Positions 42,615 to 49,735 of a stretch of DNA of 64,000 bases are shown here, piece after piece (positions within the stretch are counted from its first letter, which is position 1; each line of letters starts with the position of its first letter). Location: contig NZ_CANLBK010000006.1 of NCBI RefSeq assembly GCF_947488835.1, forward strand, positions 40,042 through 104,041. The letters are read 5' to 3'. The position numbers and the translations under genes are program-made. The notes beneath the pieces were generated by a model. It ran no database searches. It was not told the DNA's origin and saw nothing but the letters and a program-made list of their open reading frames with translations. The DNA is from an uncultured Marinobacter sp. (lineage in GTDB: Bacteria > Pseudomonadota > Gammaproteobacteria > Pseudomonadales > Oleiphilaceae).

Positions 42615-42935
42615 TTACTGGTTATCGACAGCTTCTTTCGTAGCTTTGAAGATCCGCGTCTTCGTCCCGTCTTCCTTAATCTGGAAGCCAACACGATCGG
42701 CTTTGCCGGTCTGCGGATTAAAAACAGCTACGTTGGAAGCCTGGATAGGCGCTTCTTTTTCGACGATGCCACCGGGGGTGCCCAACATCGGGTTTGGTTT
42801 AGTGTGTTTCTTCATCATATTGATGCCGGAAACAATCACCTTGCCATCGTCCTGAACTTTCAGAACTTTACCACGTTTGCCTTTGTCTTTCCCCGTAGTG
42901 ACGATTACTTCGTCATCTCGTTTAATCTTTTTCAT
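42615..42935 (-). CDS. rplX: 50S ribosomal protein L24
   Basis: KOW motif GKDKGKRG. Confidence 0.99.
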
Positions 42936-42952: not shown

Positions 42953-43321
42953 TTAAAGTACTTCGGGTGCCAGTGAGATAATTTTCATGAACTTTTCGTT
43001 TCGCAGCTCACGGGTAACCGGTCCGAAGATACGGGTACCAATGGGTGCGTCCTGATTGTTCAGAAGTACAGCCGCGTTGCCGTCGAAACGGATAAGCGAC
43101 CCATCGGGACGGCGAACACCCTTACGGGTGCGCACTACTACAGCCTTCAAGACCTGGCCTTTCTTCACTTTTCCGCGGGGGATGGCTTCCTTAACGGTCA
43201 CCTTAATGATATCCCCAATGGCGGCATAACGCCGGTGTGAACCGCCCAGGACCTTGATGCACATCACCTGACGCGCACCACTGTTATCCGCGACTTCAAG
43301 CATTGTCTGAGTCTGAATCAT
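42953..43321 (-). CDS. rplN: 50S ribosomal protein L14
   Basis: [15 protein letters not shown]. Confidence 0.99.
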
Positions 43322-43339
43322 GGTTGTTCTCCGGGCGAA

Positions 43340-43606
43340 TTACACCTTGGATGCATGTTCAGTGACTTCCACCAGGGCCCAGCTTTTGGTCTTGGAGACC
43401 GGGCGGGTTTCCTGAATGGTCACAGTGTCACCGATATTGCACTGGTTGCTCTCATCGTGAGCATGGATCTTGGTTGAACGCTTCATGTACTTACCGTACA
43501 GAGGGTGTTTCACCTGACGCTCGACCAACACCACGATGGACTTCTCCATCTTGTTGCTTACGACCTTGCCGCTAAGAGTTCTGGCAGTTTGGGTAGCTTC
43601 GGTCAT
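43340..43606 (-). CDS. rpsQ: 30S ribosomal protein S17
   Basis: [19 protein letters not shown]. Confidence 0.99.
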
Positions 43607-46413: not shown

Positions 46414-46707
46414 TTATTCCACATCCAGAAAATCGATGTCCTGACCTTCAGCCAGCTTTACATAAGCCTTACGAATGTCATTACGCTTGCCGAACCCGCG
46501 GGCTGTGCGCTTGAGCTTGCCCTTACGATTCAGAACTTGAACACCTTCTACGGTGACGTTGAACAGTTGCTCAACAGCCTTCCTGATCTCCGGCTTGGTG
46601 GCGTCCGGGGCAACCCGGAAAACAACCTGACCATGCTCGGCAACCATTGAGGCTTTCTCCGATACGTGAGGCCCTAAAAGGACCTTATAAATACGTTCCT
46701 GATTCAT
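46414..46707 (-). CDS. rplW: 50S ribosomal protein L23
   Basis: PHVSEKA, RKAYV. Confidence 0.99.
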
Positions 46708-47309
46708 CCCAGCATCTCCTCGATCTTCTTCAGAGCGGGAACAGTTACCACGACTTTCTCGTAAGCAACCAGGCTAACCGGATCCAGACCCGCAACATCA
46801 CGCACATCGACGTGAGGCACGTTGCGAGAAGCCAGGTGCAGATTATGCTCAAGGCTTTCTGTCAGGATCAGGGCATTGGAAAGGCCCAGATCTGCCAGCT
46901 TGGACGTGAAGTCTTTGGTCTTTGGCGCATCGACTGCAAAGTCGTCAACCAGAACCAGACGCTCCTGACGAACCAACTCGGAGAAAATAGAGCACATCGC
47001 GGCACGATACATCTTACGGTTAACTTTTTGCTCAAAGCCGCGAGGCTTGGCAGCAAAAGTCACACCACCGGAGCGCCAGATAGGGCTACGGATTGTACCG
47101 GCACGAGCGCGACCAGTACCCTTCTGACGCCAGGGCTTCTTACCACCACCACTGACTTCTGAGCGGGTTTTTTGAGCCTTGGTTCCCTGACGGCCAGCTG
47201 CCATATAAGCAGTAACCACCTGGTGAACCAGAGCCTCATTAAAATCTTTGGCAAATGCAGCATCGGAAACAGAAATTCCCTTGCCACTACCTGTAATAGT
47301 CAATTCCAT
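46704..47309 (-). CDS. rplD: 50S ribosomal protein L4
   Basis: [14 protein letters not shown]. Confidence 0.99.
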
Positions 47310-47320
47310 CGAACCGCTCC

Positions 47321-47959
47321 TCAGGCTTTAAGTGCAGGCTTGATGACAACATCACTGCCAGTTGCGCCGGGGACGGCACCACTAATCAGCAGGAGGTTGC
47401 GCTCGGCGTCGACACGGACAACTTTAAGGTTCTGCACAGTTACTTGCGCATTACCCATTTGGCCCGCCATCTTTTTGCCCTTGAATACCTTGCCCGGAGT
47501 CTGGTTCTGACCAATAGAACCCGGAGCACGATGCGATAGGGAGTTACCATGCGTTGCATCCTGCATGGAGAAGTTCCAGCGCTTAACGCCACCCTGGAAA
47601 CCTTTACCCTTGGACTGACCGGTAGCATCTACAAGCTGACCATCTTCAAAGACAGTTGCAGCAATTTCGCCGCCTGCAGCCAGGTCTTCACCTTCGCCGT
47701 CAGCCAGCCGAAATTCCCAAACTCCCCGACCAGCTTCTACGCCGGCTTTAGCAAAATGACCTGCCTCGCCCTTGGTAACACGTGACGCACGACGAGTGCC
47801 CACAGTTACCTGAACAGCGCGATAGCCGTCATTCTCAAGAGTTTTGAGTTGAGTAATGCGGTTAGGATCAACCTCAATTACCGTAACAGGCAGAGCCTGC
47901 CCGTCTTCCGTAAATATACGGGTCATACCAGCCTTACGGCCGACAACACCAATTGCCAT
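47321..47959 (-). CDS. rplC: 50S ribosomal protein L3
   Basis: [23 protein letters not shown]. Confidence 0.99.
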
Positions 47960-47972
47960 GTTTCACCTCTAA

Positions 47973-48015
47973 GTGTACGGGGCTCTCACCCTCTATGGCC
48001 TTAGGACAGTTACAC
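47973..48015 (-). promoter_or_regulatory. Candidate cis-regulatory RNA resembling the 23S rRNA L4/L24-binding junction
   Basis: mRNA GUGUA-AC-UGUCCUAAGGCC-AUAGA-GGG-UGAGAG-CCC-CG-UACAC, ending 3 nt before the rplC SD GAGGUG. Confidence 0.7.
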
Positions 48016-48034
48016 AGATCAATACCAGGTGGTA

Positions 48035-48346
48035 TTAACCGAGGCTAATCTGAACGTCTACACCTGCTGCCAGGTCCAACTTCATCAAAGCATCTACTGT
48101 CTTTTCCGTTGGCTCAACAATGTCGAGCAAACGCTTATGAGTACGAATTTCATACTGGTCGCGCGCGTCTTTGTTAACGTGCGGGGAAACCAGAATAGTG
48201 TACTTTTCCTTCCGCGTCGGCAGAGGGATAGGCCCACGCACTTGAGCGCCGGTCCGCTTAGCGGTATCGACAATCTCCTGCGTCGACTGGTCGATAAGGC
48301 GATAATCAAACGCCTTCAACCGGATTCGAATCTTTTGGCTTTGCAT
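48035..48346 (-). CDS. rpsJ: 30S ribosomal protein S10
   Basis: [27 protein letters not shown]. Confidence 0.99.
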
Positions 48347-48412: not shown

Positions 48413-48441
48413 ATTGTATGCATAATACCCAACCCTGTCAA
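48413..48441 (-). promoter_or_regulatory. Sigma70 promoter of the S10 operon
   Basis: TTGACA-N17-TACAAT followed by the GC-rich discriminator GCGGCTCC. Confidence 0.9.
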
Positions 48442-48490
48442 CAGAGATGACTACTGACCAGATCGGGACAAGCGGTTGCGACAGAAATCG

Positions 48491-48517
48491 AAAAAGGGGC
48501 TGACCAAGTCAGCCCCT
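48491..48517 (-). terminator. Intrinsic terminator of tuf
   Basis: AGGGGCTGAC-N3-GTCAGCCCCT stem followed by a minus-strand U-run. Confidence 0.9.
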
Positions 48518-48538
48518 CTTCCTGATGCAACGAGCGTC

Positions 48539-49735
48539 TTACTCGATGATCTTGGCGACTACGCCAGCACCAACGGTACGACCGCCTTCGCGAATCGCGA
48601 AGCGCAGGCCATCTTCCATGGCGATCGGAGCAATCAACGTCACTTCCATCTGTACGTTATCACCCGGCATAACCATTTCCACGCCTTCCGGCAATTCACA
48701 GGAACCAGTTACGTCGGTAGTACGGAAGTAGAACTGAGGACGGTAGCCCTTGAAGAATGGAGTGTGACGACCACCCTCATCCTTGCTCAGTACGTATACT
48801 TCACACTCAAACTTGGTGTGCGGCTTGATGCTGCCCGGCTTACACAATACCTGACCACGCTCAACGTCGTCACGCTTGGTACCACGAAGCAGTACACCTA
48901 CGTTCTCGCCAGCACGACCTTCGTCCAGCAGCTTACGGAACATCTCAACACCGGTGCAGACAGTCTTGACGGTATCCTTGATACCAACAATCTCAACCTC
49001 CTCACCAACCTTGACGATACCGCGCTCAACACGACCGGTCACAACCGTACCACGACCGGAGATAGAGAACACATCCTCAATCGGCAGCAGGAACGGCTGA
49101 TCAATCGCACGCTCCGGCTCAGGGATGTAATCGTCCAGAGCCTCAACCAGCTTCTTCACAGCGGTTGTGCCCATTTCGTTGTCGTCTTTGCCCTGCAACG
49201 CCATCAGCGCTGAACCAGTGATGATTGGCGTATCGTCACCCGGGAAGTCGTACGCACTCAACAGCTCGCGCACTTCCATCTCTACCAGCTCAAGCAGCTC
49301 TTCATCATCTACCATGTCCGCTTTGTTCAGGAACACAACGATGTAAGGAACGCCAACCTGACGAGACAGCAGGATGTGCTCACGCGTCTGAGGCATCGGG
49401 CCGTCAGCTGCGGAACAAACCAGAATCGCGCCATCCATCTGAGCCGCACCGGTGATCATGTTCTTCACATAATCCGCGTGGCCCGGGCAGTCTACGTGTG
49501 CGTAGTGACGGCTAGGAGAATCGTACTCAACGTGAGAGGTCGCAATGGTAATACCACGCGCACGCTCTTCCGGTGCGTTATCGATCTGATCGAATGCACT
49601 CGCAGAACCAGTACCCCAAACTTCGTGACACACACGAGTCAGAGCAGCGGTCAGAGTCGTCTTACCATGGTCAACGTGACCAATAGTGCCCACGTTAAGG
49701 TGTGGCTTAATTCTTTCAAACTTGGATTTAGACAC
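48539..49735 (-). CDS. tuf: Elongation factor Tu
   Basis: [28 protein letters not shown] start. Confidence 0.99.

Follow-up and report, generated by a model that had tools for sequence, protein, structure and literature searches.

Feedback of the ribosomal protein (r-protein) uL4 on the S10 operon is textbook knowledge, and the RNA target of this feedback is confined to Enterobacterales and a few neighboring groups. In Escherichia coli, the target is the S10 leader, an RNA of about 170 nt with five hairpins; it is located upstream of rpsJ and controls transcription, through a NusA-dependent terminator, as well as translation (PMC3616713). Pseudomonas lacks a conserved counterpart of the E. 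coli uL4 site, and the control of the S10 operon in Pseudomonas and its relatives has been left open in the literature (PMC3616713; PMC10931766). Here, we analyzed a 64,000-nt stretch of DNA from an uncultured Marinobacter sp. (contig NZ_CANLBK010000006.1, positions 40,042 to 104,041; called the window below) and describe a 43-nt RNA element on its minus strand, between rpsJ and rplC, that mimics a 23S rRNA site in sequence and structure and is probably an operator of the genes that follow it.

The kind of system to which the element would belong, autogenous r-protein control via rRNA mimicry, is known, and by analogy the E. coli S10 leader (L4-interacting RNA) is its closest functional counterpart. 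Work on that leader is reportedly due to Yates and Nomura (1980) and to Zengel and Lindahl. Stelzl and coworkers are said to have found in 2003 that the 23S rRNA fragment comprising nt 295 to 343 competes with the S10 leader for uL4, and the leader reportedly resembles the rRNA site only in three dimensions. The element and the leader have in common the operon, the purpose of matching r-protein synthesis to rRNA, and probably the regulator. In contrast to the leader, the element measures 43 to 49 nt, is located within the operon downstream of rpsJ, lacks a terminator, and reproduces the sequence of the rRNA site; it thus does not share the position, size, hairpin set (HA-HG), or attenuator of the E. 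coli S10 leader. Another internal operator is the S8 operator of the E. coli spc operon, which differs in protein, rRNA site, operon position, and fold. The S8 operator closely mimics helix 21 (H21) of 16S rRNA, and repression from it spreads downstream by translational coupling. The L4 leader candidate of Archaeoglobi (Eckert and Weinberg 2020, PMC7247131) resembles the element in placement, being a candidate uL4-binding RNA directly upstream of rplC-rplD, but it is archaeal, and its authors considered it uncertain. What the Marinobacter element shares with rRNA-mimicking r-protein operators as a class is that it is a structured, conserved, and transcribed RNA beside a ribosome-binding site (RBS) in an r-protein operon and that it resembles the rRNA site of proteins encoded downstream (uL4 and uL24).

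An earlier, sequence-only reading of this DNA had given the sequence of the 75-nt gap between rpsJ and rplC, which we found to be exact on the minus strand, and had proposed that the gap folds into a three-way junction. To search for the element, we built a covariance model, R1, whose seed consists of mRNA spacers alone (alignment A1, described below) and no rRNA sequence. In the 64-kb window, R1 had a sole match, at exactly positions 47973 to 48015 of the minus strand (52.2 bits; E = 2.7e-11). The parts of the element and of its immediate surroundings, in the order of transcription and with helices named after H18, H19, and H20 of 23S rRNA, are as follows.

47960-48034, minus strand: rpsJ-rplC spacer, 75 nt (read directly).
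48017..48040, minus strand: P0 hairpin, which ends 1 nt before P1 (minimum free energy [MFE] fold and covariation).
47973..48015, minus strand: three-way-junction RNA, 43 nt, the Marinobacter form with a truncated H19-like arm (covariance model R1).
48011..48015, minus strand: 5′ strand of P1, GUGUA, equivalent to the end of H18; pairs with 47973-47977 (covariation; 95.9% of cells paired).
48000..48009, minus strand: vestigial P2 (H19-like arm), C-UGUCCUAA-G (model-fitted alignment A2).
47993..47999, minus strand: junction strand GCCAUAG, equivalent to 23S nt 317-323 (81 to 100% conserved per position in mRNA copies).
47979..47991, minus strand: P3 hairpin GGGUGAGAGCCCC, equivalent to H20, 23S nt 325-337 (identical to H20 of the E. 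coli strain in L081).
47973..47977, minus strand: 3′ strand of P1, UACAC (covariation).
47964..47969, minus strand: Shine-Dalgarno (SD) sequence of rplC, GAGGUG, 3 nt after the element (read directly).
47957-47959, minus strand: ATG of rplC (read directly).

Nucleotides 295 to 343 of 23S rRNA fold independently and constitute the smallest fragment that is bound exclusively by uL4 and uL24 (PMC6426284). In its 49-nt form, the element aligns base for base with this fragment of E. coli 23S rRNA (H18/H19/H20). R1 matched E. coli 23S nt 295 to 343 over its full length with 49.8 bits (E = 1.2e-10), roughly the score of the window element, and a blastn search with the spacer against 5,426 complete E. 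coli genomes matched only 23S rRNA, over 27 nt with 92.6% identity. The likeness to the domain I junction of 23S rRNA, which the sequence-only reading had pointed out for the 3′ half of the element, is therefore real, and in relatives it spans the whole 49-nt fragment. Most lineages share with the rRNA site its length of 49 nt and its three helices, and one covariance model scores both; the common bases are the AA after P1, the UGnAA loop, GCCAUAG, GGGU..AGCCCC, and GUA. The two differ in that the element is located in an mRNA spacer, where P0 (5′) and the rplC SD (3′) take the place of the continuation of H18. The window had no Rfam match to large-subunit (LSU) rRNA, and the element is flanked by the rpsJ stop codon and the rplC SD, with no further rRNA sequence.

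Seven of the E. coli genomes matched the spacer at E <= 10, and in one of them, strain SF-173 (L081; 23S gene start at L081:85, site at L081:379-427), the H20 loop (410-419) reads GAGAG, as in the window copy. The usual E. coli H20 loop is presumably GACAG, which would account for the small number of E. coli genomes above the blastn threshold.

The likeness extends to 23S rRNA genes of other bacteria. Scanning metagenomes with the pattern GCCATAG-N-GGGT-NNNN-GCCC, which fixes 15 positions of the resulting rRNA comparison set, we obtained 80 loci, of which, judged by their flanks, 3 are rpsJ-rplC spacers and most others are 23S genes. Five of these loci were checked against Rfam: four held most or all of an LSU rRNA gene, and the fifth (L089) held a 211-nt LSU fragment alone, covering the site. 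The preponderance of 23S genes indicates that GCCAUAG is common in bacterial 23S rRNA, in which E. coli has GCGAUAC instead. R1 matched the same site in about 70 metagenomic 23S genes with up to 65 bits, above the score of the window copy. To 23S sequences of this kind, the mRNA element is identical at 41 of 49 positions in Pseudomonas and at 43 of 49 in Salinicola. Outside the positions set by the pattern, the bases that are 98 to 100% conserved in rRNA and also conserved in the mRNA copies are A299, A300, U306, A310, A330, A332, G333, U339, and A340; G308, A311, and G329 are conserved to the same degree in the rRNA set and free to vary in mRNA. One of the metagenomic 23S rRNA genes (L093, 2297-2831) carried two matches to the Rfam group I intron family.

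To determine how widely the element occurs, we selected 80 loci from one-genome-per-species contigs by S10 protein similarity, independently of the motif, and extracted all rpsJ-rplC spacers; this gammaproteobacterial sample excludes Moraxellaceae, Xanthomonadales, Legionellales, and Betaproteobacteria. The element was present in the rpsJ-rplC spacer of 47 loci, which belong to Pseudomonas, Halomonadaceae, Cellvibrionaceae, and former Oceanospirillales. Element-bearing spacers of 75 to 175 nt were found in Pseudomonas, Stutzerimonas, Thiopseudomonas, Oleiphilaceae, Cellvibrionaceae, Halieaceae, Spongiibacteraceae, Halomonadaceae, Marinomonas, Marinobacterium, Amphritea, Saccharospirillum, Thalassolituus, Bacterioplanoides, and one Endozoicomonas. 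None of the sampled Enterobacterales (in the sense of GTDB) had it: the spacers of Enterobacteriaceae, Pasteurellaceae, Vibrionaceae, Shewanella, Colwellia, Pseudoalteromonas, Aeromonadaceae, and Succinivibrionaceae measure 12 to 57 nt and lack the element. On the element-bearing side, it was not found in three loci, L069 (Endozoicomonas sp. G2_1), L076, and L079.

Two metagenome-assembled genomes (MAGs) stood out in this sample. L076, labeled "Pseudomonadales bacterium," has an rpsJ-rplC spacer of 178 nt (829-1006) that contains GGCUCCGAUAGGGAGCUGGCGACAGGCGCGAGCC and neither the element nor an E. coli-type leader. The contig of L068, labeled uncultured Verrucomicrobiaceae, encodes a gammaproteobacterial S10 that is 89% identical to that of the window; its element (1425-1473) is typical and resembles Spongiibacteraceae copies, and the contig is probably a binning contaminant.

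The usual form of the element has 49 nt, GUGUAAC-GCUCUGAAAUGGGCG-GCCAUAG-CGGGUGAAAGCCCC-GUACAC, and is identical in 19 Pseudomonas-group loci, which bears out the earlier mention of a similar spacer in Pseudomonas. Among unique 49-nt copies, mean pairwise identity was 0.858 for the element and 0.962 for the junction core, compared with 0.449 for third codon positions of rpsJ. Even the endosymbiont "Candidatus Pseudomonas adelgestsugas," with a genome of 1.8 Mb, retains the element (L047, 1830-1878), and the bases of its P2 are shifted to A/U and still pair. P2 is a 5-bp stem with a UGnAAn loop in most other genera, and its length ranges from about 2 to more than 12 pairs across loci. The H19-like arm is truncated in Marinobacter and some other lineages; in the window, P2 is vestigial, with about two pairs (C7-G16 and U8-A15). 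The truncated form, UGUCnnAAG, is kept in ten further Marinobacter loci (L202-L211; spacer at about 621-700; uL3 85 to 99% identical), in which the remainder of the 43 nt is nearly invariant. The window copy thus represents the norm of the genus and is not decayed, and with UGUCnnAAG in place of the H19-like arm, any binder of the Marinobacter form would not need the H19 loop. Two further features of the window copy, an anti-SD-like CACCU in the loop of P0 and a CUAAG/CUUAG pairing over the SD in the MFE fold, were dropped, as neither is kept in ten other Marinobacter loci.

We evaluated the fold by covariation in A1, a MAFFT alignment of 23 distinct sequences, in which we tested P1 (GUGUA/UACAC), P2 (the middle hairpin), and P3 (GGG/CCC). 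In total, 96.9% of the cells were paired and five pairs showed changes on both sides; the covariation score was reached by none of 500 shuffles, and all slid controls scored far lower. R1, seeded with this alignment, matched every element-bearing locus exactly once, and this holds for five loci outside the seed whose P2 has long insertions. In A2, an alignment fitted to the model and hence biased toward the structure, compensatory changes occurred in all five P2 pairs and in two of the five P1 pairs (U-A to C-G at pair 4 in two sequences and G-C to A-U at pair 1 in one sequence); the unfitted A1 gives the same picture. The GGG/CCC stem of P3 is invariant in 29 of 29 distinct sequences and offers no covariation to test. 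The three-way junction proposed by the sequence-only reading, which had suggested a covariation test on the spacers of relatives, thus gains covariation in P1 and P2, and the part of that proposal that did not stand is the short hairpin of the window copy, of which only the vestigial P2 is left. RNAalifold, run on the MAFFT alignment, recovered P2 and P3 and paired bases 1 to 3 with the CAU of the junction, not with the 3′ end; we kept P1 because of the U-A-to-C-G double changes and the known rRNA structure.

The surroundings of the element are also conserved. The distance from the element to the SD is 1 to 4 nt in most lineages and 9 to 12 nt in four. A P0-type hairpin lies 0 to 3 nt upstream of the element in nearly every lineage, and the P0 of Marinobacter and Pseudomonas contains the final Gly codon of rpsJ together with its stop codon (UAA in the window). 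In 22 sequences of the Marinobacter and Pseudomonas groups, 98.5% of P0 cells were paired and one pair occurred with four pair types, and a CG-to-UA change in P0 involves the synonymous third base of the last rpsJ codon. A ribosome that terminates on rpsJ must melt P0. Three of the four lineages with a distant SD, L002, L013, and L061 (Marinomonas, Marinobacterium, and Amphritea), carry an extra conserved AACUGGCAA between the element and the SD, which is 9 to 12 nt away; the fourth is L005.

To see whether the element is part of the operon transcript, we used stranded raw RNA sequencing (RNA-seq) reads at a Pseudomonas locus, i.e., from an organism other than that of the window. For the organism of the window itself, no RNA-seq run covered more than 39% of the sampled words, and all of these runs were in contig form. 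Read depth was about 450 in rpsJ, 370 to 400 in the spacer, and 365 to 420 in early rplC, an even read-through, and no read ends or joints accumulated in the spacer. The reads that were placed on the element at 80% likeness had no rRNA-derived differences or loose ends, and in another run, a Pseudomonas RNA contig began 38 nt before the rpsJ ATG. This even coverage without ends indicates that the element is transcribed as part of a polycistronic mRNA and does not act as an attenuator in the conditions sampled. In the window, there is no U-run or terminator-like site after the element, and the terminator scan found only the terminator of tuf.

We then compared the distribution of the element with that of the E. 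coli-type leader, using an nhmmer profile made from 14 S10 leaders of Enterobacteriaceae, Vibrionaceae, and Pasteurellaceae. Full-length matches to the profile were obtained in 17 of the 80 loci, all of which lack the element; in the 47 loci that carry it, just weak matches to the RBS and start region were seen. Eight loci had neither element nor leader, and the window had no match. Full leader and element never occur together in the 80 loci, and this mutually exclusive distribution fits the earlier idea that the element is an alternative to the E. coli S10 leader. It also agrees with what Fu et al. (2013, PMC3616713) and the 2024 review (PMC10931766) state on the uL4 site.

The genes around the element are arranged as follows.

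48539-49735, minus-strand cluster: tuf, upstream of rpsJ.
48490..48522, minus strand: intrinsic terminator of tuf (terminator scan).
48413..48441, minus strand: sigma-70-type promoter of the S10 cluster, TTGACA-17-TACAAT (11 of 12 consensus positions matched).
48035..48346, minus strand: rpsJ (S10), upstream of the element (open reading frame [ORF]; Pfam Ribosomal_S10 on orthologous loci).
47321..47959, minus strand: rplC (uL3), first gene downstream of the element and proposed direct target (ORF).
46704..47309, minus strand: rplD (uL4), the favored ligand, starting 11 nt after rplC (Pfam Ribosomal_L4 on orthologous loci).
42615..42935, minus strand: rplX (uL24), within the same gene train; possible ligand instead of or together with uL4.

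The uL3 of the window and the uL3 of Marinobacter sp. KMM 10035 have the same sequence (100% identity). Given the promoter at 48441-48413, the leader before the rpsJ ATG is about 60 nt long, just as the sequence-only reading had estimated. Within the S10 part of the cluster, the 75-nt spacer is alone in being long; genes there are otherwise separated by −4 to 23 nt. The gap between rpsQ and rplN (region 42953-43606, minus strand) is just 18 nt and leaves no room for a terminator plus a promoter between the S10 and spc clusters, which thus form one gene train that includes rplX. A weak match to the Salmonella small RNA (sRNA) family STnc320 of Rfam at 48485-48540 of the minus strand (24 bits, compared with a gathering threshold of 50) was rejected as such, as it corresponds to the hairpin of the tuf intrinsic terminator.

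From the comparison of sequences, we consider it probable that the element is a cis-acting translational operator in the S10-spc mRNA through which uL4, possibly with uL24, exerts feedback. When 23S rRNA is limiting, free uL4 would bind the mRNA copy, either alone or cooperatively with uL24. Because the junction ends 3 nt before the rplC SD, inside the footprint of the 30S subunit, a bound protein would hinder or trap initiation at rplC, and the tightly packed downstream genes may then be repressed via translational coupling. The upstream rpsJ, which encodes S10/NusE, would escape repression. Like the continuation of H18, P0 probably stacks beneath P1, and it would insulate the junction from the coding region. 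Protein binding, the identity of the protein, repression, and coupling are the steps that we infer here. We favor uL4 as the ligand because it is the known E. coli regulator, because rplD is the second gene after the site, and because uL4 binds the rRNA fragment more tightly: on the isolated fragment, dissociation constants of 0.67 μM for uL4 and 16.6 μM for uL24, a difference of about 25-fold, have been reported, with a mutual cooperativity of roughly six- to sevenfold (PMC13351717).

Several points weigh against an operator bound by uL4. The predicted folding energy does not stand out (z = −1.07 for the spacer plus flanks, 91 nt, and z = +0.86 for the element itself, 43 nt), and shuffled sequences are predicted to be at least as stable as the isolated element. 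As P3 and the junction are invariant, their predicted pairing comes from rRNA homology and not from covariation; the RNAalifold model, as described above, chooses a different partner for the first three bases. Marinobacter has lost most of the H19-like arm, and affinity would drop if the ligand needed H19. All three junction strands are conserved, which makes uL4 and uL24 inseparable by sequence analysis. That rpsJ and rplC have equal RNA coverage speaks neither for nor against a translational model.

Among the alternatives, the closest is the same operator with uL24 in place of uL4 as the effective regulator. In the rRNA fragment, uL24 touches the two strands of H18 and has a larger number of close contacts than uL4 (PMC6426284), and the mRNA copies keep both P1 strands plus the adjoining conserved AA and GUA; P0 stacked under P1 would lengthen the H18-like helix, and rplX follows without an operon break, given the short rpsQ-rplN gap. 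We nevertheless consider this unlikely, as uL24 is the weaker binder of the isolated fragment by about 25-fold (PMC13351717), the 2024 review records no bacterial uL24 autoregulation (PMC10931766), regulation of these genes by uL4 is established in E. coli (PMC3616713; PMC10931766), and rplX lies 12 genes away from the site, to which rplD is the second gene. The two proteins may also act together. We raise, as a tentative possibility, that the element is a two-protein sensor derived from rDNA, in which cooperative binding of uL4 and uL24 would cause steep repression of the S10-spc train upon simultaneous excess of both, with S10/NusE outside the loop. The site is the 5′-most r-protein binding site of 23S rRNA, and S10/NusE is needed for rRNA antitermination. 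With such a sensor, the mRNA would compete directly with nascent 23S domain I for the two earliest 50S assembly proteins.

The remaining alternatives dispense with translational feedback. The spacer could hold a structural mRNA element, i.e., a stabilizer, an insulator that sets the S10:uL3 ratio, or an RNase signal, with the rRNA likeness reflecting reuse of a fold; the junction does fold stably alone (PMC6426284), and together with P0 it makes a compact structured block between two cistrons. Stability alone, however, would not keep the junction strands and the flanks of the H20 loop identical to rRNA across families while the stems covary, and with ordinary predicted stability and no read ends or depth steps in the spacer, this explanation seems rather improbable to us. 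There is a precedent for transcription attenuation, in which protein binding would cause premature termination before rplC, as uL4 and NusA together bring about termination within the E. coli leader (PMC3616713; PMC10931766), but the element is not followed by a U-run or terminator-like site and RNA-seq depth is continuous over the spacer, which makes an attenuator very unlikely. Least credible of all is a functionless relic, be it a chance insertion of rDNA or a chance resemblance. The element may have originated as a captured rDNA fragment, in line with its identity to 23S rRNA at 41 to 43 of 49 bases. Against a relic stand the fixed position and orientation beside the rplC SD in 47 loci of many families, conservation far above that of synonymous sites, compensatory changes, retention in a reduced endosymbiont genome, and the absence of flanking rRNA sequence. 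As an account of present function, the relic is effectively refuted; capture of rDNA as the origin is plausible.

The element is apparently undescribed before. Rfam 15 gave no match in the window at gathering thresholds, none in the spacer at E <= 10, and none in 20 related loci, which is weak evidence of novelty because the E. coli S10 leader escapes detection by Rfam models as well. No description of the element was found in the full-text literature searched, which includes two systematic surveys of r-protein leaders and the 2024 review and from which most subscription journals are absent.

These results make the element a candidate for the missing operator of the S10 operon in a lineage that includes Pseudomonas, Halomonas, Marinobacter, and Cellvibrio. 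If this is correct, it would be an unusually literal case of rRNA mimicry, with 41 to 43 of 49 bases in common with 23S rRNA. It would also mean that regulator RNAs are replaceable while the regulatory logic persists, here with the control point moved inside the operon and S10/NusE escaping. The 43-nt form of Marinobacter, a natural minimal RNA without H19, may serve as a tool for dissecting the recognition of rRNA by uL4 and uL24 at the first step of 50S assembly.
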